Origin: Eledone cirrhosa
Lineage: Eukaryota
Length of the DNA: 64,000 bases
NCBI GenBank assembly: GCA_964016885.1
Contig: OZ024741.1
Span: 53,816,001 to 53,880,000, forward strand
Direction of reading: 5' to 3'
Part shown: piece after piece, positions 19,620-62,740 of the stretch
Layout: every line of letters starts with the position of its first letter
Position numbering within the stretch: the first letter of the stretch is position 1
Program-made: the position numbers and the translations under genes
The notes under the pieces: model-generated
Told to the model about the DNA's origin: nothing
What the model saw: only the letters and a program-made list of their open reading frames with translations
The model's database searches: none

Positions 19620-20373
19620 ATCAAATCCCGCCGAGGTTAACTTTGCCGTTCATCCTTACGGGGTCGATAAAATAAAGTACCAGTTCTGTACTGGGTATTT
19701 GCTGGCCTTGTGCCAAAAGTAGAAACAATTATTAATATTAATAGGGCGGTGAATTGGCAGTATCGGTAGAGGGTCGGACTGCAGCATAGTTAGGTCCCTT
19801 TACGGTCTGAGTTCAAATCCCGTCGAGGTTAACTTTGCCTTTCATCCTTACGGGGTCGATAAGATACGGTACCAGTAATGCACTGGGGGCCTCGTGCTAA
19901 AAGTAGAAACAATTATTAATATTAATAGGGTAGGAGATTGGCAATATCAGCAGAGCGTCAGACATTAGGTTTTGCAGCATAGTGTTACGGCCCTTTACGG
20001 TTTGAGTTCAAATCCCGCCGAGGTTAACTTTGCCTTTCATCCTTACGGGGTCGATAAGATACAGTACCAGTAATGCACTGGGGTAATTGCTGGCCTTGTG
20101 TCAAAAGTAGAAACAATTATTAATATAACTAGTTAAGTTAGAGATAATATGTTTATATTATGTATGGTTTATACATTTTGGCAGTATCAGTAGAGCGTCG
20201 GACAACATGCTTAGCTGGATAGAGTTGCGCCCTTTACGCCCTGAGTTCAAATCCCGCCTTTCATCCTTACGGGGTCGATAAAATAAAGTAGCAGCAACAA
20301 ACAGGGGTCGATTTAATCGACTTTCACCTCCCCCAAAATTGGTGGCCTTGTGCCTATATAGGGAACCATTATT
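19620..20373 (+). mobile_element. Head-to-tail array of four main-family SINEs
   Basis: Copies at ~19620-19740 (5'-truncated), 19744-19921, 19928-20125 and 20177-20373, joined mostly by ATT/AAT tails. Confidence 0.9.
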
Positions 20374-33696: not shown

Positions 33697-34510
33697 TACA
33701 GAGCTGCAGTCCTGGCTCAAGCGAAGACCGAAGAAGATGGGCGCCTGGCACATTGAATGCGCCCAGACGCTCACAGTCCTCTGTCAAGCGGGCATAGCAA
33801 TCAGTGGAGACTCCACTTCGACATTCTATAGAGGGTCAGTACTTTACAAGTGCAACGACGTGCTCGGGGAGACTCTAGACATCGAAGACGACGAGCTGAC
33901 CAGTCTGTTCGGTAGGACTTTCCGCCTAGGACCTATGGACAACTTCCAGAGGTCCCTGGCTGGCAGTGCTACCGAGGAGCTCTACCTGTTCGAGACAAGA
34001 TCTACAGGCACGGACGCCCCGGCAGGGATCCTTCCAAGAGGACGTGTACACGATACGAGCAGGACATTGAAGCCGTATTGCACGCAATTGTACATTGCCC
34101 GGGCGTAACTGACCTGTGGAACTATGCAGAACAACTGCTGTCGGGTATGGGACAAATCCAGTTGACTGCCGAGTCCATAGTAAGGATCAAACCACCAGCC
34201 TCTTTCAAAAACGAAAGAGAGGCGGTTTTCCTCTGTACAGTGGCTATGGTGAAAGAAGTTATATGGTGGACGAGATTGAGAGGATGAGGACAGATGCCTT
34301 TCTCTCCGCACAACAATTGATTCCCTTCTTTAAGTGTCACTTTAGAAGAAGAATAAGAGTGGAGAGAGAGGCACTGCACCCCAGTAAATTTACTGAAAGG
34401 TGGGTGAATGAAGCGAAAATCGCCTGAGTGATTGGGCCTTCTCTGTTTCTAAGCATGTAGGCTTATAAACAACCCATTTGTAATACCTCCCCCCATTGGG
34501 GATTTCGATT
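33697..34510 (+). mobile_element. Tx1-like LINE 3' fragment
   Basis: [11 protein letters not shown]...[11 protein letters not shown]...HAIVHCP...VIWWTRL, homologous to the ORF at 56593-57780. Confidence 0.9.
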
Positions 34511-45661: not shown

Positions 45662-45932
45662 TGGATTGGCAGTATCGGTAGAACGTCAGATCCCAAGCTT
45701 GGCAGCATAGAGTTATGACCCATTATGTTCTGAGTTCAAATCCACCGGGGTGACTTCGCCTTTCATCTTTGCGGGATAGATAAAATATAGCACCAGTAAT
45801 GCACTGGGTAATTGCTGGTCTTGTGCCAAAAGTAGAAACATTATTATTATCATTATGGATTGGCATTATCGGTAGAGCGTCGTACAGCATGCTTTGTGGT
45901 ATAGAGTTACGTTCTGAGTTCAAACCCACCGC
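45662..45932 (+). mobile_element. One complete SINE followed by a SINE 5' half
   Basis: 45662-45850 complete; 45856-45932 stops just after the B box. Confidence 0.85.
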
Positions 45933-47170
45933 ATAGTGCCTCCACACTGATACCAGACCAGATCTGTCTTCGTGGTCGATTCACCTCCAGGAGGCTCTTG
46001 CTTCCCCTTGCGTAATGCAGGCCAATATCAATCAGATGCTTACTATCTAGTAGGATTGCCGACATTTTCACCCTCACCGTTCTTCTTCGTACTCCTAAAG
46101 GGAATCACGGGATGTTTTACAGACAAAGCTTCATATTTATAGAGCAGAGCACTGAAATTCCAGCAAACTAACTTGACCGCGTGATGTGTTCTACATCGAG
46201 CTTTATTTCTTTCAGTGTTGTTTCCACTTCTTCCTGATTCCTTGGTCCGGGTCTTTTCATGACTGTGGACACGCATTTGTAAGTAACCGTCTCTTTCTGC
46301 CAACATCTCAGGGAGTTTGCAACCCCAGCCGAGGATGTTTCCAATTTTATCAGTGTGCCTGCTTCAGCCAAATATGTCTCCTTTTCGGCAATGTTCATAT
46401 AAAAGAGTTCGATACTTTTGGCAGCTGATTCTGCAAAATTATTGCTCTTGTTCTTGTTGGCTTTTACTGTTATTTTTGTGGCTGTTATTGTTGCCGAGGT
46501 TAACTTTGCCTTTCATATTTCGGGGTCGATAAAATAAAGTACTAGTAATGTACTGGTTAATTGCTGGCCTTGTGCCTAAAATAGAAACAGTTATTGTTAT
46601 TATTGTTGTTCGTGTTGTTGTTGTCATTTGTGTTGTCGTCTGTGTACTTTTTATTCTTTATTTCAATTATTGCATTAGAGGTGGTGTTCGTTCTATTTCC
46701 TTTGGTTATGCTTACTTTGACTGCGGTGGGGGTGGGGGTGGGGGCAGCATTCAGAGTGGTAGCCTTTGGCAGTGGTGGAAAATTTATTTCATTCGAGGCT
46801 GCTGAGAAGAGATATTAGGTTTTGGCTGCTGCTGCTACTGGTGCTGTTGCTGCTGCTACTGGTGCTTTTGTTGTTGCTGCTGCTACTGCTATTATATTGT
46901 TTTGTTAATTTTGGCGCTTCCATTCTATGCATAGCCGGCATTAGTGTTTTTCGGACCCATATTTTAATTTCTACAAAACATTGAGTTGTGTGTTTGATAA
47001 ACAAACACAGGGTTAATCACCAAGGGATACAGGTAACGCTAAACTAACCAGCTCACAAAAATACTGGTTAGTGTAATTATCAAGCGCCAACAAATGTTTA
47101 ATACATGTTGAATTACAGAGTGAATATAGAACAAACTTTCGGAGTGATGTGTATGATCTGGAGAGGCTCA
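45933..47170 (-). mobile_element. Decayed Tx1-like 5'UTR/ORF1 fragment interrupted by a SINE 3' half (46492-46600, +)
   Basis: TVTYKCVSTVMKR...HITR parallels TVTYRTVSTKSRR...HITR in ORF 61123-61983; low-complexity N/S-rich N-terminus. Confidence 0.7.
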
Positions 47171-47189
47171 ACAACATCAGCAACAACAA

Positions 47190-47405
47190 TAATGGTTCCT
47201 TATATAGGCACAAGGCCAGCAATTTTGAGGGAGAGAAAAGTTGATTAAATCGACCTCAGTACATTACTGGTACTTTATTTTATCAACCCCGTAAGAATGA
47301 AAGGCAAAGTTAACCTCGGCGGCATTTGAACTCAGAACGTAAAAGGCCGTAACTCTATGCTGCGAAGCATGGTGTCTGACGCCATACCGATACTGCCAAC
47401 TCACC
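47190..47405 (-). mobile_element. Main-family SINE
   Basis: Reverse complement of the family consensus. Confidence 0.9.
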
Positions 47406-47430
47406 ACCACCACCATAATAATAATAATAA

Positions 47431-50400
47431 TGATTTCTTTATTGGCCACAAGGGCTGACATCAAGAAAAACACTACAGAGGGCACAGGACGGTACAGGAC
47501 TGTACGATGTGGGTTATGTGCGGGTAAATATTTTTATTATTTATATAAGAAAAGAAAAAAAAAAGGACATAGAAACATATATATATATAAACAATAAAAA
47601 TGAAAATTGAAACAATGAAAAATTCCCCAATAGGGAGGAAACCTCCGAGGGTTACTCGTGGCGAAAACCACACAAAAGACCACGGCCACCCTAACCACCA
47701 GGACAAGCGCCCTCTCTCAATTTTTCTATCTCTCAAACTACAGACGTATATTCGGACCATTCTCTCTACATTCACCCACCTTTCAACAAATTGCTAGAAG
47801 GCAGCACTTGCCTCTCCACCCTGATTTTCCTCTTCAAGTGAAACTTGAAAAAATTAATCAGGGATTCGCCGAAGAGAAAAGTGTCTGTCTTTAACCCTTT
47901 TAACCTTGTCCACCACACAATCTCTTTCGCCATGGCCACCAGGCTGATGAAAACCGCCTGCCCTTCCTCCTCGAAGGAAGACGGCGAGACCATCTGCACA
48001 ATGGACTCAGTCGACAACCGGATCAGTCCTACACGCGACAGCAACTGTTCGACATAGCTCCACAAGTCAGCAATGCTCGGACACTGAACGAGTGCGTGCA
48101 CGACGGTTTCGTCGCTCTGCGCGCATCTCGCATAGGCTCGGCTGACGGCACTTCCGTGCCTGTAAAGCTTATCTCAAACCGGCAGCACTCCCCGGTAGCA
48201 CTGCCAAGCCAGGGATTTTTTGAAGTTATCCATAGGCCCCGGGCTGAAAGTTCTCTGAAAGAGAGCAAACAGCTGATCTTCTTCGACTCCCAGGATCTCT
48301 CCAAGAATGTCGTCGGTCTTCCCCTCCACTAGTCCTCTATAGAATGCCGAGGTAGATGTTCCACCGATACTGGTGCCCAGCTGGCAGAGGACATTGAGCG
48401 CCTGGAGACATTCCAGTTTCCAAGCGCTATCCCTCGCACTTTTTCTGACCCAGGACTGCAGCTCCGTCAAGGAGACGAGCTGTGGGTAAACGTGCCTGGC
48501 GAACGGCGACCACACCTGTTCACCATCAAGAACGCACCAGAGATGTCGCAGCCTCAGCGCATATTTGCGCATCATCAGCCATGGCATGCTCAGTCCTCCA
48601 CGCAACGGGTGTTGACAGCGGATGGATCGTCTGACCATGGGAGCGTGTCCCTTCCACAAAAAGCGGAAGAGGAGGCGCTCCCTTTTGGTGAGAGTTGGGC
48701 TGGAGCAAGGGACGACGGTGAGGCGGTAGCAGATGACGGATGCGATGTACGCATTCGCCACCTCCGCCCGGCCTTTCAAGGACAGCTTCCTCTCGGCCCA
48801 TTTCTGGGTGAGGGAGGCCACCCTGCTCGTCACCTCGTTCCAGTTTTTCTCCATCTGGAGGTCCGGTCCGAACCAGACCCCTAGCAATTTAACCGGTCCG
48901 TCCGTCCAACGCCCCACAACGCTGTCGGACGGCATGGACTTGCCTCTCCAGGTGCCGAGCTGCAAGCCCACCGACTTTTCCTGGTTTATCTTTGCTCCTG
49001 TCACCGCTTCGTATTCCTTGAGAGCGGGGCCGAGCATCTGGACGTGTCTGGTGCTCGACACCACCACAGTGACGTCGTCAGCGTAAGCCGACTCGGATTT
49101 CCCGCATCCTAGTTCGCGTGGGACGACCCTCATCGCCCCCTGTTTGTGCAGTAACGGCTTGAGAGCCAATACGTACAAGAGGGACGAGAGGGGACAACCC
49201 TGGCGGACTGAGCGCATGATGCTGAATGGCTGCGACAAGTGACCGTGCACCCTCACAACTGAGCGGATGTCGCTGTACATTGCTGCGATCCAACCCCTGA
49301 AAACGGGCCGAAACCGGCTGCCTCGAGGACCGCCGCCAGTTACCGAGGGTCGACCCTATCGAATGCTTTGGATGATCCAAGTTGATCAGGGCCCCACCCG
49401 TGCCAGGTTCCTTAACTGCCCTCTCTATGATTTATCGCATGAGGTGAAGGTTGTCGTGTATGGATCTGTCCGGAATGGCGCATATCTGCGCCTCTCCCAC
49501 CAGACCCTTGACGACAAGCGCCAACCACGTTGCTAACACCCTGGCCAAAATCTTGAATTCTGCGTTTAGCAGTGATATGGGCCTGATATTATCGATAACA
49601 TCCCCCTTGTTCGGGTCTTTTCTCAGCAGCGCCACTCCTCCCCGGCTCACAAAACTGGGAATGCTCCCGTTCTGCTGCCAGTTGCAGTAGACGTCTGCCA
49701 AGAGGTCACCGAAATGGTGCCGTACTGTCTGCCCCTCTCTATGTACTGGGTGTCTTCTCTGATGCACCTCAGCGCGACTTCGACATCTTCTTGTGGGATT
49801 AAAGCTGCCCTTTTGGTTTGTGCTGAGATGCATCTATAATGCACCGTTTTGCGCTCCACTGCCTCAATAGCTTCTACCGGGACAGTTAAGTTGGCCCAAG
49901 TTTGCTCTTACTTGATGAACTTCCATGCGTTGGCCAACTTTTCATCTTTCTGTGAGAGGTCCATGTTGAAGTATGGCCTCTTTTTTGCTGCTGCCGCAGC
50001 GAAAGTGTTCTTGTTTTCGTTGGGGGTGTTGTTGACGTTGTTTTTGTTGGTGTTGTTGTTAGCACTGTCGCTGTTATCATTGTTGTCTTTGTTGCCACCG
50101 TTGTTCTCGGTGCAGTTGGTATTGTTGCTGTTGGTGTTGTCGCTATTTGTTTTCATGTTAGTGGTGTTGATATTGTTGTTGTATTTGTTATTTTTTTTTT
50201 GTTATCTGTGTTTTCGTTGTTGCTGTTACTGTCATTTTTTTTCAAAATTAGAGTTCTTATTAGTATCATTGGTGTCTTTGTTTACCTTGTTTGTGGTGGT
50301 GTTTGTGTTATCAATGTGTGTTAATTTCGCTGTAGCACTCCTCTCAACTTCTACGTCGTTGTCGCACGACAGCTGACATATCGCTGGGGGCGTGGCTCAT

Positions 50401-50576
50401 GTAAAAAAAGTTCAAATATTTGGGCCAAAAGGCCCAAATATTATACTTTCCCCTTCACGGGGCAAAGTCTAAGGGCTTATATCCCTTACACAACAAGAAA
50501 TATTTAACAACAAATAATTTTAACAGGCAAATAAAGCGACTTACTGTGAGCGAGCAAAATACGTCCGCTTAGACCA
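47431..50576 (-). mobile_element. Tx1-like LINE with both ends but a large internal deletion; frameshifted RT
   Basis: RPISLLN, VRQGCPLS, AYADDV and LLGVWF motifs; ORF1 N-terminal part joined near 49725 to the pre-RT region; (AAT)n on both sides. Confidence 0.9.
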
Positions 50577-50597
50577 ATAATAATAATAATAATAATA

Positions 50598-50790
50598 ATA
50601 ATTGTTTCTACGTTAGGCACAAGGCCAGCAGTTATCCAGTGCATTACTGGTACTTTATTTTATCGACCCCGTAAGGATGAAAGGCAAAGTCAACCTCGGC
50701 GGGATTTGAACTCAGATCGTAAAGGGACGTAACTATGCTGGAAAGCATGGCGTCCGACCCTCTACCGATACTGCCAATCCACCGCCCTAT
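50598..50790 (-). mobile_element. Full-length main-family SINE between (AAT)n tracts
   Basis: Reverse complement of the family consensus. Confidence 0.95.
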
Positions 50791-50813
50791 AATAAGAATA
50801 ATAATAATAATAA

Positions 50814-50856
<43 letters not shown>

Positions 50857-53800
50857 TGGTTTATTTAAATTAGATGAACAAAAATTGGCCGGGCAGGCTC
50901 GGGTAATAAGAACTAATGGGTGGATAAGCGAGCTGGAACTGGAGGAACTGAGCAGAGAGAATGGCTTGGAGATGGCGGGTGTAGTATGCCAGACAAGCGA
51001 GCCGGCGGGAAATGAAGGTGAGGAGGTCCTGAGAACGGAGGAACCACCCGAAGCAGACAATGATCTGAATACTGAGATAAATAATACCTGGAACAGAGAT
51101 ACGGCCACTGAGGAGATGAATGCTGACGGGCTAGGACAAGATTCGGTTGACATCCTAAATTTAGTGGTAGATGAGTTGAACAATGATAGTGGGAGACCTA
51201 TGAACCTAAGATTTGTAGACAGGAAAAAGTTAAAAGAAACAACAGCTAAGGTAAACAAAGTCATCCCATACCTTGAGGCGAGGAGTCTTCACCAGTGCAA
51301 CAATATCCTCAAAGCAACAGCAAATACGGTGAGGAAACTACTTGGTATAAAAGCGAGAGGAAACAACAGACAAGAAAGAGCAGAGCCGTGGTGGAAGAAG
51401 CGACTGAGTGGGCAAATCGGGGAAATGAGAAATGACATAGGAAAGCTTGAGTCACTACTGAATGGGACACTAAAAAACATAGGCACTAAAAATAGACTGG
51501 AAATAAAATACAAAACTAGGAGTAAAAAGCTAAATATTATCATAGAGGAATTGAAGCAACGCATTGTAGCAAAGAGTGCCAAAATCAGGCGATACGAGAA
51601 CAGAGTCAGTCAGTATAAACAGAACCGCATGTTCGACAACAACCAGAAGATGCTGTTTGGACAGCTTGAGGGGAAAGAAAGAGGCAACGACTTGATCCCT
51701 GGGGCGGAACAAGCTAAAACATTCTGGAGAGGAATATGGGAGCAGGATGTTAGACACAATGCCCAGGCAGGGTGGATTGAGACAGTACAGAGGGAGATCG
51801 GTGAGCAGGCACAACAACAGATTGATTTGAGTATCACAGTTGAAACTCTTAAGGGGCAAGCCAAAAAACTAACCAACTGGAAATCACCAGGCCCAGATGG
51901 TGTGCAGGGGTATTGGATTAAACATTTAACATCCCTCCACCCGAAGCTGACGGCCATGTTCAATGACTGCTTGGTGTCGGGTGAGGTGCCAGAGTGGTTG
52001 ACAAAAGGTACCACAGTTCTGATAATGAAAGACCGAATCAAGGGTAATGATGTTACCAACTATAGACCTATCACATGTCTGCTCGTAATGTGGAAACTGT
52101 TGACGAGCATTGTGTCTGAGGAAATCTACCATCACCTCCACACAAACAACTTGTTACTGGACGAACAGAAAGGATGCCGAAAGAAGTCACGTGGTACAAA
52201 GGACCAGTTGCTTATTGATAAGATGGTAATGGGGAATTGCAGGAGGAGACACACTGATCTTGCCATGGGATGGATAGACTACAGAAAGGCATTTGACATG
52301 GTGCCTCATTCCTGGATCACCAAAAGCCTGGAGATCTTCAGGGTGGCAGATAACATCAGACAGTTGCTGGGCAGGAGTATGGGGTCCTGGGAGACAGAGT
52401 TGACATCAACTGGAGTATCCTTGGGAAGCGTGAAGATCAAGAGAGGTATCTTCCAGGGAGATAGCCTGTCCCCTCTGTTGTTTGTCCTTGCCCTGATGCC
52501 CTTGACCATTATGCTGCGAAAAGTGAGAGCAGGATACAAGTTGGGAAGGGGAGAGCTTACCATCAATCACCTCCTCTTCATGGACGATCTTAAGCTCTTC
52601 GGGAAAAGTGAGAAGGAGTTGGATGTGCTTGTTGATACTGTCCGTATTTTCAGCAGTGATATATGTATGCAGTTTGGTATTGGTAAATGTGGAGTCATTG
52701 TGATGAAGAGGGGTAGGTTGAGCAGAAGTAACGGGATCCAGATACCAACAGGTGAGATGATAAAGGAAATTGACTCTGAGGAAGGATACAAGTATTTGGG
52801 CGTTCTGGAGGCTGATGGCATAAAGAACAAAAAAATGAAGGAATTGTCAAGAACTGAATACATTCGGAGAGTAAGGAGCGTATTGAAGTCACATCTGAAC
52901 AGCAGAAATACCATAAGCGCAGTAAATTCCCGAGCTGTGTCTATTATTAGGTACAGTGCGGGAATTCTGAGATGGAATGTTGCTGAACAAAAAGAAATGG
53001 ATAGGAAGACTAGGAAGCTATTGACTATCTACAACATGTTCCACAAGAGGAGTGATGTCGATAGACTCTACCTAAGGAGATCTGGGGGTGGAAGAGGTCT
53101 TATCAGCATAGAGGACTGTGTTCAGATGGAGAAAAACAACCTATACAAATACGTGACCTATAGTAAGGAGCCAATGCTCAGAACTGTCCTGAAGGAGGGG
53201 ACAGTAGGCCAGGGGATATCCAAGGAGGAAATAACATCAAGGAGGAAGAGCAGCCTTAAGGGAAAATCCCTTCATAGTACCTTCTTTGAGAAAACTGAAT
53301 TTAGAGATTCACAGACATGGAACTGGTTGAGAAGAGGAGACCTCAAAAAGGCTACAGAAGGAATGCTAATGGCTGCGCAGGAGCAGGCCCTCAAAACGAA
53401 GTGGTTGAAGCACCATATCTACAAGGAGGAGGCTAGCCCACTGTGCAGGATCTGTGGAGAGAGAGAGGAGACTGTGGCTCACATTGTGTCCGAGTGTAAA
53501 CACCTAGCCCAGACCCACTATAAGGGCTGGAGACACGATGTGATGGGCAGGGTGATCCACTGGTATCTGTGCAAAGTAAACAATCTACCACATTCTTAGA
53601 AATGGTATGAGCATAGGCCAGAGGCGGTGATGGAGAACAGTTAGGTGAAGGTGCTGTGGGATTTTAGGATACAGACGGACAAAAAACTGGAACACAATAG
53701 ACCTGACCTGGTGGTTATGGACAAAGAAAAAAGATCGTGCCTGATTGTGGATGTGGCCTGCCCGTTCGACACGAGAGTGCAAGAGAAGGAGAGGGAGAAA

Positions 53801-54092
53801 ATTAACCGATACCACAACCTAAAGTGGGAGGTGAAAAGGATTTGGAACTGCCATGAAGTCAAAGTGATCCCGATTGTCATAGGCGCACTGGGGACTATCT
53901 CCAAAGGTTTCCAGGGATGGTTAAAGAAAATCGGCCCCTTCACGCTTTTTGGAACGCTTCAAAAGGCATGCTTGCTTGGAACAGCAAGAACCCTCCGATA
54001 CGTCCTGAATATCTGAGGCTGCAGGTAGTGGCTTGATATTCAATCCAACGGACTTTCCAGTTAACCAACATCAATGACTGAGATTCAAGGAA
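50857..54092 (+). mobile_element. R4/Dong-like non-LTR retrotransposon (RT + CCHC + restriction-like endonuclease), probably 5'-truncated, with two premature stops
   Basis: YRPITCL, DYRKAFD, GIFQGDSLSPLLF, FMDD, CRIC..ETVAHIVSEC, RHD and RPDLV..DVACP motifs; TAG at 53597 and 53642 where copy 2 has GAG and CAG; ORF ends at 54016; (TAA)n flanks. Confidence 0.95.
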
Positions 54093-54125
54093 TAACAATA
54101 ACAATAATAATAATAATAATAATAA

Positions 54126-55200
54126 TGAAGACTAGGAAGCTATTGACTATCTACAACATGTTCCACAAGAGGAATGATGTCGATAGACTCTACTTCAGGA
54201 GATCTGGAGGTGGAAGAGGTCTTATCAGCATAGAGGACTGTGTTCAGATGGAGAAAAACAACCTACACAAATACGTGACTGATAGTAAGGAGCCAATGCT
54301 AAGAATTGTACTGAAGGAGAGGACAATAGACCAGGGGATGTGCAAGGAGGAAATATCAACAAGGAAAAGAGCAGCCTTCAAGAAAATTCCCTTCATAGTA
54401 CCTTCTTTGAGAAAACTGAATTCAGATATCCACAGACATGGAACTGGTTGAAAAGAGGAAACCTTAAAAAGGCTACAGAAGGAATGCTAATGGCTGCGCA
54501 AGAGCAGGCCCTCAAAACGAAGTGGCTGAAACACCATATTTACAAGGAGGAGGCTAGCCCATTGTGCAGGATCTGTGGAGAGAGAGAGGAGACTGTGGCT
54601 CACATTCTATCCGAGTGTAAACGCCTAGCCCAGACTCACTATAAAGGCTGGAGACAGGATGTGATGGACAGGGTAATCCAATGGCACCTATGCAAAGTAA
54701 ACAATTTACCACATTCTGAGAAGTGGTATGAGCATAAGCCAGAGGCGGTGATAGAAAACGATCAGGTGAAGGTGCTGTGGGATTTTAGGATACAGACGGA
54801 CAAGAAACTGGAACACAATAGACCTGACCTGGTGGTTTTGGACAAGGAAAAAAGATCGTGCCTGATTGTAGATCTGGCCTGCCCATTCGACACGAGAGTG
54901 CAAGAGAAGGAGAGGGAGAAAATTAACCGATACCAGGACTTAAAGTGGGAGGTAAAAAGGATTTGGAATTGCCATGAAGTCAAAGTGGTCCCGATTGTCA
55001 TAGGCGCATTAGGTACTATCTCAAAAAGTTTCCAGGGATGGTTAAAGAAAATTGGCCCCACCTCGCTTTTTGTAACACTTCAAAAGGCATGCAAGAACCC
55101 TCCGATACGTCCTGAATATCTGAGGCTGTAGGTAGTGGCTTGATATTCATTTCAACAAACTTTCCAGTTAACTAACATCGATGACTGAGACTCAAAGAAC
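54126..55200 (+). mobile_element. Second, shorter 5'-truncated copy of the same R4-like family
   Basis: Collinear with 53005-54092; frameshift near 54350 and a 14-nt deletion near 55092. Confidence 0.95.
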
Positions 55201-55220
55201 AATAATAATAATAATAATAA

Positions 55221-56312
55221 TCGTTTTGAAACACGAAAGCATCAAAAGATCATACTCCATTACAAAAGATGCACAAAGATATAGTAATGGACTACAAATT
55301 TCAGAAGTCCCATTTACTGCTGAAATGGAAAACACAGAAAAAGCAAAGCAGGTAAAAGTAACTGCAAAGAAAGAACTGCTACAGAAACTCGCTAAGAAAT
55401 GGCAAGAAAAGCCTCTGTATGGAAAATACCCAGAACGAGCTAACAATCCTGATGTTGACAAAACTTTAACCCATCAGTGGTTGGCATCCTCTGGACTAAA
55501 ATCGGAGACTGAAGGACTGATTATATCAGCACAAGTTCAGTGTCTGCCAACAAAATATTACCAAGCCAACATAATAAAAAATGGATGCAGCCCATTATGC
55601 CGTGTATGTAAAAATCAACCAGAGAGACCATTGACCATATAATTTCAATGTGCAGTCCTATATCTCCAACCGAATGCCTAAACAGGCATGACAGAGCTGC
55701 ACGATACATACATTGGATAATGTGTAAGCATTTTGACCTGCCCCATCAAAAGCATTGGTGGGAGCATCAACCACCTCCCATACTTGAAAAAGATCACATC
55801 TCAATGTTGTGGAACATTAGCATCCAAACAGACCGAAAAATAGATGCAAATAGACCTGATATAATATTGAAGGACTTTAAAAAGAGGGTATGCCTGCTAA
55901 TTGATATGTCCGTTCCAATAGACAAGAATGTATCTATAAAAACATTTGAAAAATTGAGCAAGTATAAGGACTTGGAGATAGAAATTGGAAAAATGTGACA
56001 ATTGAGAACTAAAACAATACCAGTGGTTGTAGGCGCTCTAGGAATAATACCTAAGGGGTCTAATGATTACTTATCGCAAATCCCAGGAAACCCGCGTATA
56101 GGAGAAATACAAACGATAGTACTTATGGGAACTGCCCATATACTAAGGTAGATTCTGTCAATATAAGTACATCACAAGTCTAAACACCTAAAGATGCATG
56201 TGTGAGTATGTATGTTCTTTCTTGAACATGGCGGACCTTGTTGTCTCTTGAGGTCACTGGTTGTGACTTGGTGATAACTCGTATGAACATAAAGCAAGAT
56301 AAATACAGCTGT
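55221..56312 (+). mobile_element. Third R4-like 3' fragment from a different family
   Basis: LKSETEGLIISAQ, CRVC, RHD, NRPDII, IDMSVP and EKLSKYKDL motifs; frameshift and stop; (TAA)n tail. Confidence 0.9.
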
Positions 56313-56592
56313 AATAATAATAATAATAATAATTATTATTATTATTTCTTTATTAACCACAAGTGTTTACATAAAGTACACATTAAGGACAGTCCAGGAC
56401 AATACAGGACGGTACAAATGGGCATTTCTGCGTGTAAAAAATAAAAACAGAGGATGTAAGAAAAAATAACAATGAAAAATTCCCCAATAGGAGGGAGACT
56501 TCGGAGGGACATTTGTGGAGAAAGCCCAGTAAAAGGCCACAATGACCCTGACCACCAAGGCAAGTGCCCTCTCCCAGTTTTCCACCTTTAAT

Positions 56593-59500
56593 TTACAGAT
56601 ATATACTCAGAGTAGGCCCATTCACTCGGGCCATTCTTGCTTCTCTCACCCATCTTTCAACAAAATGCTGGGAAGAGAGCACTTCCCTCTCTACTCTGAT
56701 TTTCCTTTTCAAATGAAATTTGAAAAAATCAATCAGAGCATCACCGAAGAGGTAAGTGCTCGTCTTCAGCATTTTCAAACGTGTCCACCATACTATCTCT
56801 TTCGCCATGGCCACCCGACAGATAAAAACTGCCTGCCCTTCCCGGCTAAAGGAGGGGGGCGGGGCAATCCTCACGATGGACTCAGATGATAGCCGGATCC
56901 GTCCTAAACGCGACAGCAGGTGTTCGACATAGACCCACAAGTCAGCAATTTTCGGACACTGGACGAGTGCGTGCAGGATGGTTTCGTCGCCCTGCGCGCA
57001 TCTCGGACATGTCCGGCTTACGGCACCTCCATGCCTGTAGAGTTTATCCCGAACTGGCAAGGCTCCTCGGTAGCACTGCCAGGCCAGAGATTTCTGGAAG
57101 TTGTCCATAGGCCCCGGCCCGAAAGATCTTCCGAAGCGATTGGCTAGTTGATTTTCATCGACGCCTAGAGTTTCCCCAAGTACGTCGTCGCTCTTCCCCT
57201 CCACTAACCCTCTATAGAACGCCGAGGTGGAGTTTCCACCGATCACATTGCCCGATTGGTCGAGGGCTGTGAGCGCCTGAAGATATTCCAGTCTCCAGGC
57301 GCTCCCTCTCGGTCTTCGCTTGACCCAGGACTGCAGCTCCGTCAAGGAAACGAGCTGGAGAAATACGTGTCTAGCAAACGGCGACCACACCTGATCACCG
57401 TCGAGGAAGAGGTGGAGATGTCGTAGCCTGAGCACATGCCTGCGCATCATCAGCCACGGCAAGCCCAGCCCTCCACGTAGCGGGTGTTGACAACAGATGG
57501 ACCGCCTGACCATCGGAGCGCGTCCCTTCCACAAAAAGCGAAAGAGCAAACGCTCCAGCGCAGTCAGGCGAGGCTTAGGACAAGGTACGACGGTCAGGCG
57601 GTAGCAGATGACAGACGCGATATACGCGTTAGCCACCTCCGCTCGACCTTTCAGGGATAGCTTCCTCTCCGCCCATTTCTGGGTGAGAGAAGCCACCCTG
57701 CTCGTCACCTCGTCCCAGTTTTTGTCCGTCTGGAGGTCCGGACCGAACCAGACCCCTAGGAATTTAACCGGTCCATCCAACGACGCTGTTGGACGGCATG
57801 GACCTGCCTCTCCAGGTGCCGAGCTGCAGGTCCACTGACTTTTCCTGGTTGATCATTGCTCCTGTCACCGCTTCGTATTCTCTTAGTGTAGTGCCGATCG
57901 CCTCGATGTGTTTGGCGTTCGACACCACTACGGTGACATCGTCCGCCTATGCTGACACGGATCTGCCGCATCCTAGTTCGCGCGGGATGCCCCTCAACGT
58001 CTCCAGTTTGTGCAGTAATGGCTCGAGAGTCAATACGTACAAGAGGGACGAGAGGGGACATCCTTGGCGGACCGAGCGCATGATGTTGAACGGTTCCGAC
58101 AGGTCACCGTTCACTTTCACCACAGAGCAGATGTCGCTGTGCATGGCAGCGATCCAGCCTCTGAAGACGGGCCCAAAGCCAGCCGCCCTCAGGACTGCCA
58201 CTAGGTAACGATGGTCGACCCTATCGAAAGCTTTCGACTGATCTAAATTGATCAAGGACCCACCCGTGCCAGGTTCCCTAGCTACCCTCTCTACGATGTA
58301 TCGCATGAGGTGGAGGTTGTCGTGGATGGATCTGTCGGGAATGGCGCATGTCTGCGCCTCTCCCACCAGACCACCAACGACAAGCGCCAACCTCTTTGCT
58401 AGCACCTTGGCCAAAATCTTGAACTCTGTGTTTAGCAGAGTTATGGGCCGGAAATTATCTATGTTATCCCCCTTGTTCGGATCCTTTCTCAGCAGTGCCA
58501 CTGCTCCTCGGCTCACAGAACTGGGAATTCTCACGTTCTGTTGCCAGTTGCAGTAGACGTCCGCCAAGAGGCCTCCGAACAAATCTGGTATCTGTACGTA
58601 AAGTTCATAGGGCAGACCATCCAAACCAGGCGATTTACCTCTTTTGCAGCCATTCATTGCCTCCCTTACTTCAGCGGCTGTTATCGGCTTTTCGCAACAC
58701 TTCGCCTCAGTGGCCGAGAGCCGCGGCAGTCCGTCGAGGTAGACACTAAAGTCCATCCCTCGACCCGGCCCACCGCTGCCCCCGAACAGCTGAGCGAAGT
58801 GTCGCTGAAAATCTTCACACATTTGCCCGGGATCGAGTAGCATGCGCCCGTCGTCGTCCACCAAAGACCGGATCGTGGCTTTGTTGCCACGACGCGCCTC
58901 CGCCACTTGGGACCATTGAACGGCTTTCGTCCCCTCGTGTCTGAGAGCACGCACCCTTGCTCTGACAACGCAGCCTTCGTGCTTTGCATTGAAGAATTGG
59001 TCAAGGGCCAATTTCGCCGTAAGCACGTCGGTCGCAATGCCTTTGCTAAGCGCCTCGTCTAATTTTCTAACTAGTTCTCCCTCTGCTCTATTTTTCTCTA
59101 ATGCTAAAGCCTTACTAAACCTAATGGATTCTATTCTAATCGCTCTTTTCAGAGCAAACCACCACTTGTTGTTGACGATGGCCCCCGTCAACGCCCACTT
59201 AACTAGTTCGCTAATCCGGTCTCTGTAGGCCTTGCGCGCTGGTAAGGACGCGTTTAGCTTCCAGTAGCCGGGTCCTCGTCTATGAAGCCTATCTAAGTCA
59301 AGCACACAGATTACGAATGTGTGGTGCGTGTAGCTGACTATCTTGAATTGTGGACAGCCTATGCTAGACCTATCTATTTCCCTACAAAATACTCTATCTA
59401 GATATGATCTGGATGACCCTATGCGTTTTGTCCAAGTCCACATTGGCACATTCGGGAAATCCAATCGGTACCTGTCAGACAGTTCAAAACGCCTGAGCAG

Positions 59501-60001
59501 GTTGGTGAGGCTCTTGCACCCTCCACCCCTATCCGCTAATCCCACACAGTCCCAGCGTGCATCTAAGATCCCGTTCCAGTCGCCCACTAACACTAAAGAG
59601 CGGGACGTTCCAAGAAAGGTCTCCAGACGCCGGAAGAAATCAGGCCGCCCTGCTCCTGTCGGGGCATAGACGGCCACTAGCCTGAAAGCTTGCCCGTCTC
59701 CGCTGGTCACGTCCAGCACCACCAGCTTACCCTCTGGGTCCAGGAAGATGTCCCGTATGGCGAGATCCAAACCTCTCCGAAAAAGCACAGCAACTCCTCC
59801 CCCCGATCCAGGACGGCTGGGAGATGCGTACACATCGTAGCCGCCAAAGATCGGTGTGAAGGCCCGTGCTTCGGAGAATCTGGTCTCGCTGATGGCCACT
59901 ACATCTATGTTTAGTGACCTGAGGTCGTTGAGCAGGTGACCCTGCTTCCATGACGACCCCAAGCCACGCGCATTTATGCTGCCTATTCTGAGTGAGGTCA
60001 T
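56593..60001 (-). pseudogene. Tx1 ORF2 (AP endonuclease + RT + C-terminal Cys/His motif)
   Basis: SINARG, ISET, VYAP, GDWN, YLDR, SPGLDG, DQSKAFDRV and RQGCPLS motifs; YADD changed to *ADD at 57947; frameshifting deletion near 57780. Confidence 0.95.
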
Positions 60002-60036
60002 GTTTAAAATAGAGTGGAAAAGATGGGAAAGACCAC

Positions 60037-62147
60037 TTACCGGACTTTTCGTAGAGGAGGGATGGTTTTTACATCCCTTTTCACTTGATCGTCTGGTGAA
60101 GGGACCGTTGAATCGTCCCTTCGGCTGGTCGTCGGCTCTTCTAAGAGAATGTCTGAATATACTCTTCGATTGATAGTTCCTCCTAGGTCCCTGAAATCAC
60201 CAACTGCGTTGGGGAATTTCGTTTTAATATTTGTGTATTGTTTCTGTGCTATTTTTAGCAGTCTTATGTTAGTTGGCGTTTTGATTGGTGCTGGTATTAT
60301 GTAGTCGTGTTGTGAAATGTCTGTGTGTTCAATTATGTAAGTCATTAGTTTCTTGTTGTGTGTATTTATTGCCGTGCATTTGTTTTTCTGGGGGTGGGGT
60401 GTGGTTCTGCTATTTTCTTGTCGTTGTTGCTGGGTGTGTGTGTTTTGTTGTTGTGTTTGCGATGTTGGTGCTTGTGGTGGTGGTGTTGAAGGTGTTGTTG
60501 GCGGTGGGGTTGTCGCCGGTGGTGATGGTGGTGCTAGTGTGGGTGGTGATGGTGTTGGTGGTGTTGCTGCTGTGGGTCTCTTTGCAGTAGACTTTACCCT
60601 TTTCTCATTTCTTTCCTCCCTTTTCAAAGGCGACGATGCGCTGCTTCTGCGTTTGTGCCTCCTTACGACGTTTTGCCATCCCTCTCCAACCTCACACTCC
60701 ATGTCTGATTCTGTGAGGTCGGGGAGGGGTACCAGCTCCACTCTTTCACTTGTTGTTGTTGGTGATGTTTGCACTGGAGTCTCTGTTGCAGCTGCATTTG
60801 GTATTGCTGTTGTTGTTGTTAATATTTCCACTGCTGCTGCTGTTTTTGATTTCCGTGGCGTGGGTATGGGTGCCACGGACATATCGTTCCTGGTTGCCGC
60901 TTGTCCTGTTGCTGGTAGCCGTGGAGCCGGTTTCGGAAGGAGGGGGTTTTCTCCTTTCTCAGGGTCTTCTCGTTGCAGAAGGCCCTGAGGTGAGTCTTCG
61001 ATCCACAGCGAAAGCATTTCGGGCGTTTTCCCTCAACACTTATGGGCAGTTGAGTGCCGTTATCGAAATCTATCACATCCGGGATAGCTTCGATGCACTC
61101 CTGGTTGGTTTGGATTAGCATCTCAATGGAGGTGCCGACCCAATCTTCTCCTACTTTTTTCTGTACTTGCAGTACAGTCGTTTTGTCCTCGATTCCGACG
61201 AGGACAGACGCGGCCAGCCAAGAAGGGGCCATTCCGGGGGGGGGGGGGGGCGTGGGTCAGTTTGACCCTCACAATTTTTTGCCCGCAGTAGGAGGGCTCC
61301 AACACCATTTCCTCGCTCCTTAGGGTCACTACGGATTGGGCCTTTGCCTCCTGGGGTGTGGCAAAAAGTACGTCTACGGTGGCATATTTTTTGCCTCGGG
61401 TGATGTGCGTTTTCCGCTGCCACACAGACCCCAAGGCTTTTTGTATTTGAGCCTCTGTGGCTCTTTCCACCCTACGGGATTTTGTACTTACTGTACGGTA
61501 CGTGACCGTACAGTGCTGTTGGGTTTCGAAAAATTTTTCCGCTGCCTTGCAGATTGCTCGGTGTCCATTCTTTGTCACCATCTTCTTCGCTTCCTCTAAT
61601 TCCTCATTTGTTATGAGGATTGTTTCCAAGTTTTTCGCAATACCTGCAAATGAGATTGTTTTTTCTTTGCTGCTGTTGTTGTTGTTGTCGTCAGAGCTGC
61701 TGTTACTTTTGTTGTTGCTGCAGGTACTACGACTACTGCCTCCGCCGCTGTTGCTGTGGTTGTTGTTGGTGTTGCTGCTGCTAATGCTGTTGTTGTTTAT
61801 GCTGCTGGTGATGCTGTTGCGGCTGCTACTGTTGTTTTCATTGTCACTGTTGCTGTTGTTATTACGGCTGCTACTGCTATTATTCCTGACGTCAGACGAA
61901 TGAACTGGGTTTTCGTATTTCCCGCACACCTGTTTCGTCGCTGTCGTCGTCGTCGTCGTGGAGAAACCTTGCACGCTTTGCACGAGCTTTTCTTTTCTTT
62001 CGTCGCTTGCGAAAGAGAAGGGAGGGAGAGAGACACATTTAAAGAAGGGAGGGAGAGAGACAATCTTCTCTCTGCTGTAGTGATGATTGAGGAAGAAGAA
62101 GACGGAATGAGTGGGAGTGACCTATGAAATTTCTGTTTCGTAGCCAT
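60037..62147 (-). pseudogene. Tx1 ORF1 with zinc knuckle, split over several frames
   Basis: CFRCGSKTHLRAFC (CCHC); frame changes near ~61950, the G-run at ~61240 and ~60950; ends ~35 bp before ORF2. Confidence 0.8.
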
Positions 62148-62740
62148 GTTGTTTTTTTTTTGTTTAAAATAAATATTGGGTACAAAACCCCAATAAGCAG
62201 TTATTTAACCCCGAAGGGCCAAATAACGGGCAGAAAGACCCCTCTCACGAGGAGGAGGGTGTTTTTGTCTACAAGTTCGTTAAAGTTTTAAACAATTTAC
62301 AATTGTTATAGTGTTCAAAATTTACAATACCTTACAGAGCCGAGCCTCCGTCAACCATAGCATTCAATAATAATAATAATAATAATAATAAAACAAAACA
62401 CTTGCGAGTGAGACAATGACAGTTTATGTTTTGTTACTTAGTTTGACGCAAGCGCAAGCATAGCTATGTAGATTTGTCAGGATAATCATTTCCGATGATT
62501 AAGAACTTAGAGATGTCACAGATAATTTTGGAGCTCGTCTTTAATGAGAATGCAATTATTGAATTAGTACTTGTTGAATTGCAAAAACACCCACATGCAT
62601 ATACATGCATTGATATAGTGAGAAAGGAAAATCATGTCTATCTATACCTATTTATCTATCTATCTACCTACCAACCTACCTACCTATCTATCTCTCTCTA
62701 TCTCGCACTCTCTCTCACTTTCTCTCTCTCTCTCTCTCTC

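Follow-up and report, generated by a model that had tools for sequence, protein, structure and literature searches.

Along part of a 64,000-nucleotide stretch of the Eledone cirrhosa genome (assembly GCA_964016885.1, contig OZ024741.1, positions 53,816,001 to 53,880,000 of the forward strand; the whole stretch is called the window below), two types of long interspersed nuclear element (LINE) and a short interspersed nuclear element (SINE) lie end to end, with a short AAT repeat at their junctions. The question raised by this locus is whether endonucleases of two unrelated types have come to use one microsatellite, as an earlier note made from the sequence alone had proposed. Self-comparison, scans for open reading frames (ORFs) and Pfam domains, and a library of natural copies gave the order SINE(-), Tx1(-), SINE(-), R4a(+), R4a'(+), R4b(+), Tx1B(-) from position 47194 to 62389, where the R4 members are Dong/R4-like and the Tx1 members Tx1-like LINEs. 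R4 and Tx1 elements are indeed chained through AAT repeats across the genome, as a variant of the microsatellite-targeting retrotransposons already known, and the window chain is an ordinary example of this chain-forming habit.

Repeat Tracts at the Ends of Elements

The queries used for the flanks of element ends excluded the repeat, and heads (5' ends) were counted by whole-genome exact patterns. Directly upstream of Tx1B heads, (ATT)4 is present in 2,352 of 2,459 cases (95.6%), with base-exact ATT|G joints. For R4, (AAT)3 lies within 20 nt of 683 of 761 heads; this count covers reverse-strand heads, the forward counts having been excluded as counted multiply. An ATT tract precedes the head in all seven other Tx1D copies fetched, the three Tx1 heads other than Tx1B, dissimilar in sequence, likewise begin with G after ATT, and the 3' ends of Tx1 join at ATT. 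Family copies lacking (AAT)n at their 5' ends, or lying in random orientation, had been set against its own proposal by the earlier note; checked genome-wide, the great majority of heads keep the repeat and the orientation is fixed.

A second sample was selected by 3' ends (29 copies per search and 145 ends, the window's own copy excluded). In these sets, all 25 full-length Tx1A, Tx1B and Tx1C copies have at least five ATT units at the 5' end, compared with 3 of 33 truncated Tx1 copies at the 5' joint (Fisher p 2e-13). Since long 5' ATT runs are found in full-length copies and in few truncated ones, the runs may be partly borne by the element. Truncated R4 copies show at least three AAT units at the 5' joint in 32 of 52 cases and ATT in none of the 52, and the repeat of the opposite strand was found in 1 of 58 Tx1 and 0 of 58 R4 copies. 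The background for a three-unit tract at a given position is 0.18%, obtained from 48 fixed-step 10-kb regions of contigs C1-C4. Elements split by later insertions, and three R4a rows that represent one duplicated locus, were kept in these counts. Around full-length Tx1B, the repeat masks any unique target duplication in 15 of the 16 copies for which both ends were found (20 loci), and the one long case is locus L153. For Tx1 families, a repeat in more than 20% of flanks has served as the criterion of target preference (PMC4494074), and the present Tx1 elements exceed this value both at heads (95.6%) and at truncated 5' ends (24%). The proposal that two unrelated endonuclease types use one microsatellite is thus borne out by the junctions of R4 and of Tx1 heads, and in part by those of truncated Tx1; that the endonucleases themselves choose the repeat is suggested by these junctions.

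Polarity and Frequency of Chains

Adjacent pairs across a tract were collected from all loci fetched for element flanks, after removing the window's own. The strand rule put forward in the earlier note, that R4 reads on the AAT strand and Tx1 and SINE on the ATT strand, is obeyed genome-wide by 229 of 233 pairs, and among pairs placing R4 next to Tx1 or SINE it is kept in 106 of 107. The same holds for 5' ends beside a single-strand tract, where the tails do not determine polarity (R4, 139 of 139; Tx1, 122 of 123; SINE, 76 of 78). Of the 145 sampled ends, 85 abut another member across a tract, 73 of these being a LINE, where about 2.6% and 0.65% would be expected, respectively. The exact joint of a Tx1 tail with an R4b tail occurs 176 times.

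As a check on the frequency of chains, one of 48 unselected 10-kb regions was found to lie inside a chain (L285). On contig C1, five copies of Tx1B are strung together with two R4b pieces and with SINEs over 38 kb, in the same polarity as in the window chain, which is therefore not exceptional. Whether the window chain is a segmental duplicate was considered and rejected for the one joint tested, since the two other sites with the window's R4b joint have different neighbours.

Two other kinds of repeat with ATT ends were observed. A LINE with an (ATT)n end, which we take to be CR1-like from its C-terminal motif, was seen at L229:7190-7937 and at L284, L037, L051 and L039, with a full-length Tx1B in its tail. 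A common non-coding repeat with an ATT-repeat end, often in (TA)n (L191, L199, L203, L207, L211, L290, L042, L064, and L277), provides tracts into which Tx1 and R4 insert.

Structure of the Two LINE Types

Intact copies of R4a are 4.86 kb long and have an ORF of 1,141 amino acids (intact copy at L171); the window copy shares 99% identity with them. Reverse transcriptase (RT), a CCHC motif and a PD..D..K motif of the PD-(D/E)xK endonuclease kind are present in all 56 aligned relatives of R4a, and the best PDB matches of R4a are R2, by sequence and by fold (predicted local distance difference test, pLDDT, of the model 85). An N-terminal zinc finger with the pattern CxxC..H..H/C was found in 0 of 56 relatives within the first 400 amino acids. 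At the R4a N-terminus, three helices are predicted at 58-109 (pLDDT 85-89 in the full model), and the isolated domain is predicted with a poor fold (pLDDT 49). No Rfam ribozyme family matched the 5' parts of R4a and R4b at E up to 1 at three loci, with microsatellite noise as the only signal. The clade name R4/Dong is based on architecture and target, and no named R4/Dong sequence is among the 120 homologues listed. R4a and R4b are two lineages with about 40% protein identity and together have at least 1,477 heads.

Several further features of R4 copies were recorded. R4a and R4b share the same head sequence, the first 350 bases being 71-74% similar (L171, L190, L256, and L263), and (AAG)n slips precede several heads. 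A SINE 3' tail with ATTATT lies inside the 5' untranslated region of full-length R4b (L190, about 935-1020; L263), and since it is present in two copies it seems to be a fixed part of the R4b family. The starts of four R4b copies (L189, L206, L260, and L185) all fall in a span of about 80 bases (R4b positions of about 1280-1360); this span is rich in G+C, lies shortly before the ORF and has no Rfam match, and it is a possible RNA processing site. At L184, a 4,951-bp TG...CA element with a 5-bp duplication splits an R4b copy.

Tx1B has an ORF1 with a zinc knuckle and an ORF2 with apurinic/apyrimidinic endonuclease (APE), RT and zinc finger (Pfam), and the closest solved relative of ORF2 is L1 ORF2p (E 4e-38, best PDB match). 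Both ORFs are intact in 4 of 22 copies examined (ORF1, about 713 amino acids; ORF2, about 1,200 amino acids). Because Tx1B carries APE and R4a the R2-like PD..D..K motif, the endonuclease folds of the two LINE types are unrelated. The label Tx1 is based on architecture and the 3' microsatellite tail. In Tx1B (window 56347-62365) and Tx1C (L246, L252), ORF2 and the 3' end are 94-97% alike and the heads and ORF1 differ, which suggests an exchange of 5' modules. At L268, a Tx1A copy is split by a 706-bp element that has terminal inverted repeats and an 8-bp duplication.

The SINE and Its Relation to Tx1

The SINE, one of three retroelement classes that the earlier note had seen chained through (AAT)n, was considered as a third class aimed at the microsatellite. 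This was rejected: in unselected regions, 45 of 49 intact SINE 3' ends are followed by ATTAT, which suffices as a target, and 6 of 49 have three or more ATT units. Among 23 copies with duplications of 12 nt or more, which are unique and 12-21 bp long, 21 duplications begin with ATTAT, though four of these are pure A/T and about two are possible artefacts of tandem SINEs. For two SINEs within R4 coding regions, the empty site is a lone ATTAT or ATTATT. Of the DNA sampled, about 2% is made up of this SINE. In the window, no tRNA was detected by ARAGORN.

At their 3' ends, the SINE and Tx1 families have in common a C-CTTGT-G core, an A-rich spacer and an ATT tail, the common part being about 25 nt. 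The stems of the 3' hairpin pair though they differ in sequence: AACC/GGTT in 50 copies (Tx1B/C), TGGC/GCCA in 42 (SINE), GCC/GGC in 29 (Tx1A), and GGCC/GGCT in 8 (older Tx1). Covariation of the stem was 0.55 compared with 0.28 for shuffled ends (0 of 500), and in three of the four base pairs both partners vary. The ATT-tailed CR1 family is without the hairpin. This common 3' tail is short and weak on its own. The SINE and Tx1 agree also in nick motif and strand, as judged from duplications starting with ATTAT and from Tx1 3' joints at ATT. Because of the ATTAT duplications and the covarying 3' hairpin common to the Tx1 families, the SINE is likely a passenger moved by the Tx1 protein, as far as sequences can tell.

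A Proposed Mechanism of Chain Formation and Its Alternatives

In target-primed reverse transcription, the bottom strand of the element is nicked first. From this order, Tx1 would cut the AAT strand by its APE endonuclease, and R4 would cut the ATT strand by its restriction-like endonuclease (RLE). The repeat tail of the RNA would then pair with the freed 3' end at the nicked repeat. A tract is found on both sides of each insertion, read by Dong/R4-like elements on the AAT strand and by at least four Tx1-like subfamilies on the ATT strand, and the flanking tracts would be reused by later insertions of either LINE kind, giving polarised chains. The SINE would use the Tx1 protein through the common 3' hairpin and ATT tail, joining chains as a passenger only. 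Full-length Tx1 RNA may carry, or pair with, an upstream (AUU)n run and join by homology, and this would explain the long 5' tract in full-length and not in truncated Tx1. To this joint explanation, namely nicking of opposite strands by R4 and Tx1, chains built by reuse of tracts, the SINE as passenger, and a 5' (AUU)n run in Tx1, we assign a probability of about 75%. The self-extending landing pad of the earlier note stands insofar as tracts flank insertions on both sides, and their reuse by later insertions is likely.

Several observations weigh against the joint explanation. At the 5' joint of truncated Tx1, at least three ATT units occur in 8 of 33 copies (24%) and at least two in 13 of 33, so that Tx1 may be less specific than its heads imply, and 20 of 52 truncated R4 copies are without (AAT)3 within 12 nt, some of them being split by later insertions. 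Polarity is broken in four pairs, the tails dictate the polarity of 3' ends, which therefore gives no evidence on targeting, and the loci behind the pair counts were selected around the elements and are not all independent, a few being duplicated (L081/084/086, L047/048). The covariation test used 10 hand-picked ends with the structure read from the same sequences; the 3' hairpin has only 3-4 bp and appears in three of five predicted folds, with a folding energy no better than that of shuffles (z +0.48 to -0.90). Some chain links, moreover, stem from local duplication. In the tandem Tx1B pair L153/L152, the two copies match without exception (0 mismatches) in their 5' 3 kb and differ at 43 sites in the 3' half, and the two 813-bp R4b pieces of the 38-kb array are 100% identical, which the surrounding Tx1B copies are not.

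These duplicated links would suit chains whose growth comes mainly from local duplication or from unequal crossing-over of tracts, and not from new insertions. We regard this as very improbable, since a near-identical repeat across elements was found in just one of 92 long loci, the five Tx1B copies of the array differ by 32-68 bases spread throughout, and no two members in the window belong to one subfamily (like kinds are 90.5% and 80% identical). That the middle Tx1B of the array is a crossover mosaic of its neighbours was also rejected, because mismatches run throughout. Unspecific insertion, with chains arising from selection or low recombination in DNA rich in transposable elements, would accord with the hotspots of transposable elements reported for an octopus genome (PMC13282606), but it is refuted by the base-exact ATT|G joints of Tx1B and by the 106 polarised mixed pairs, and its probability is negligible. 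A more serious alternative, unlikely in our judgment, gives Tx1 the same short target, ATTAT(T), as the SINE; the RNA of Tx1 itself would bring the tracts, and Dong would be the sole microsatellite specialist, following Tx1. It draws on the difference between full-length and truncated Tx1 in long 5' tracts, on the SINE's need for ATTAT alone, and on Tx1 3' tails of one or two units at some loci (L002, L005). With a five-letter target, however, 0.26% of positions would qualify, whereas 48 of the 87 Tx1 ends sampled adjoin a further member (12, 17, and 19 in the three sets of 29). Truncated copies are enriched about 130-fold for (ATT)3 (8 of 33 versus 0.18%), and several of the short joints adjoin other members with the tract deleted.

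The joint explanation can be carried further, though we hold this extension only tentatively and think it rather doubtful as a whole. APE and RLE elements would have converged on opposite strands of a dispersed trinucleotide repeat and would build each other's habitat, with each insertion multiplying the target. Tx1 RNA would have (AUU)n at both ends, the 5' run finishing integration at the next tract and at times duplicating up to kilobases, and one Tx1 protein would drive a very abundant SINE that seeds ATT tails throughout the genome.

Comparison with Known Systems

Dong elements on (TAA)n are known in insects, molluscs and cnidarians (PMC7998251, PMC3812793). Bombyx Dong, DongAg, DongBg and Darwinula Dong1/2 resemble the present R4 elements in a single ORF, RT, CCHC and restriction-like endonuclease, absence of N-terminal zinc fingers, and the (TAA)n target. 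The R4/Dong clade is described as having a diverged N-terminal Myb/SANT-like domain (PMC7998251), and the R4 clade an HDV-like (hepatitis delta virus-like) ribozyme at the 5' end (PMC3774820). The difference here from Dong is that two lineages occupy tracts which an APE-type family also uses, on the opposite strand. Among Tx1 families, Kibi on (TC)n, Koshi on (TTC)n and crocodilian Tx1 on (TTCC)n/(TTTC)n are likewise two-ORF elements with APE, RT and zinc finger and a preference for microsatellites (PMC4494074), and (ATT)n is not among the targets in the available part of that paper. In contrast to known Tx1, four unrelated heads all have G after ATT here, and one head has at least 2,459 copies.

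TRAS and SART, which form arrays in the telomeric repeats of Bombyx, insert there in opposite orientations (PMC10088271), so that two families share one repeat as in the present case. Both are telomeric and of the R1 clade, whereas here RLE and APE elements share dispersed interstitial tracts. For SINEU and Tx1-Mar of crocodilians, the SINE is likely moved by Tx1 protein (PMC4494074), and stringent LINE/SINE pairs have a common 3' stem-loop with compensatory changes (PMC3747384); compared with both, the common part here is about 25 nt and the SINE target is looser than that of its presumed partner. In an annotation of O. vulgaris, Dong-R4 and L1-Tx1 are counted with the families that were active recently, and its available part gives no targets or nesting (PMC13282606). 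Shared targets are not mentioned in the available parts of PMC8967140, PMC9115989, PMC4758252, PMC4824008, PMC3747384, and PMC3774820. Our literature search gave no ATT/TAA-targeting Tx1, no APE/RLE pair on one microsatellite and no cephalopod target sites; Repbase and Kojima and Fujiwara 2004 were outside the search and may list such families.

The ingredients are each precedented, i.e. Dong on TAA, Tx1 on microsatellites, and the polarity of TRAS/SART. As far as the literature search reaches, (ATT)n is an addition to the list of Tx1 targets. The chains would provide a natural side-by-side test of two unrelated endonuclease folds reading one simple repeat, and thousands of young copies and intact ORFs are suited to assay. 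In addition, a likely driver can be named for the SINE, and chain formation is a candidate mechanism by which hotspots of transposable elements and new AAT microsatellites could arise in this genome.

The Chain in the Window

Tract listing, self-comparison and library matches agree with the order, strands and junctions that the earlier note had given from 47.19 kb, and also with its statement that host DNA is nearly absent, since 14,923 of 15,200 bases of the 47.19-62.39 kb chain are derived from elements. The library used for this coverage was drawn partly from the window itself, with each family confirmed elsewhere in the genome. AAT tracts stand at all seven junction places in 15 kb, compared with a background of 36 tracts of four or more units per 480 kb (fixed-step regions), and chain neighbours are parted by (AAT)5 to (AAT)11. 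Pfam detected RT in the R4-like and Tx1-like ORFs of the window, and an APE-type endonuclease only in Tx1B (Exo_endo_phos, E 8.5e-14).

The left end of the chain has AATAAT only (47188-47193), where the 3' end of a minus-strand SINE of an older subfamily with a longer tail is located (47194..47416). Following (AAT)5 (47417..47431; this and the next AAT tracts are on the plus strand), a frameshifted Tx1-like LINE occupies 47432..50575 on the minus strand. This is one internally deleted element, in which a Tx1D-type head (50575-49713) is joined to the 3' part of an A-type ORF2, and the deletion joint near 49713 is without AAT. After (AAT)9 (50576..50602) comes a young minus-strand SINE (50603..50790), 98% identical to the nearest sampled copy and with the 3' hairpin GGC-CTTGT-GCC. 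A junction of (AAT)8 and (AAT)11 (50797..50856) leads to the plus-strand R4a (50857..54102), a Dong/R4-like RLE element that is 5'-truncated by about 1.6 kb and has stop codons near 53.6 kb. (AAT)8 (54103..54126) separates it from R4a' (54127..55200, plus strand), a 1.07-kb 3' part from an older subfamily of R4a with 90.5% identity to R4a, and (AAT)7 (55201..55221) separates the latter from R4b (55222..56312, plus strand), the 3' 1.09 kb of the second Dong/R4-like lineage, with about 40% amino acid identity to R4a. The tail-to-tail junction that follows is a palindromic (AAT)7/(ATT)5 (56313..56346). Tracts flipping from AAT to ATT form short palindromes at this place and at L062, L094, L133, and L159, and such flips host two of the four polarity exceptions. 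The last member is Tx1B (56347..62365, minus strand), a full-length 6.0-kb Tx1-like LINE, frameshifted and 97.5% identical to other copies, with (AAT)8 at its head (62366..62389) and host DNA beyond.

To the left of the chain, SINE and Tx1 pieces are present as had been noted, with three SINE pieces on the plus strand, opposite to the polarity of the chain. These are a SINE found by self-comparison (45662-45840), a SINE 5' fragment (45856-45931), and a SINE 3' fragment (46493..46592) within the decayed 5' remains of an old Tx1-like element on the minus strand (45940..47187, the extent to 47187 being probable). The ORF1 fragment of this old element (45940-46480, minus strand) shows 29% amino acid identity to Tx1D ORF1 (E 3e-19). 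Because 45662-47187 holds this old fragment and the counter-polar SINE pieces, the nest described as about 17 kb is a cleanly polarised chain over 15.2 kb (47.19-62.39 kb) and not over its full length.

Elsewhere in the window, an old Tx1-like 3' fragment (33698-34460, plus strand) is about 70% similar to Tx1B and has no ATT tract at its apparent end. At 19621-20297 (plus strand), four SINE pieces are arranged in tandem with a period of about 195 bp.

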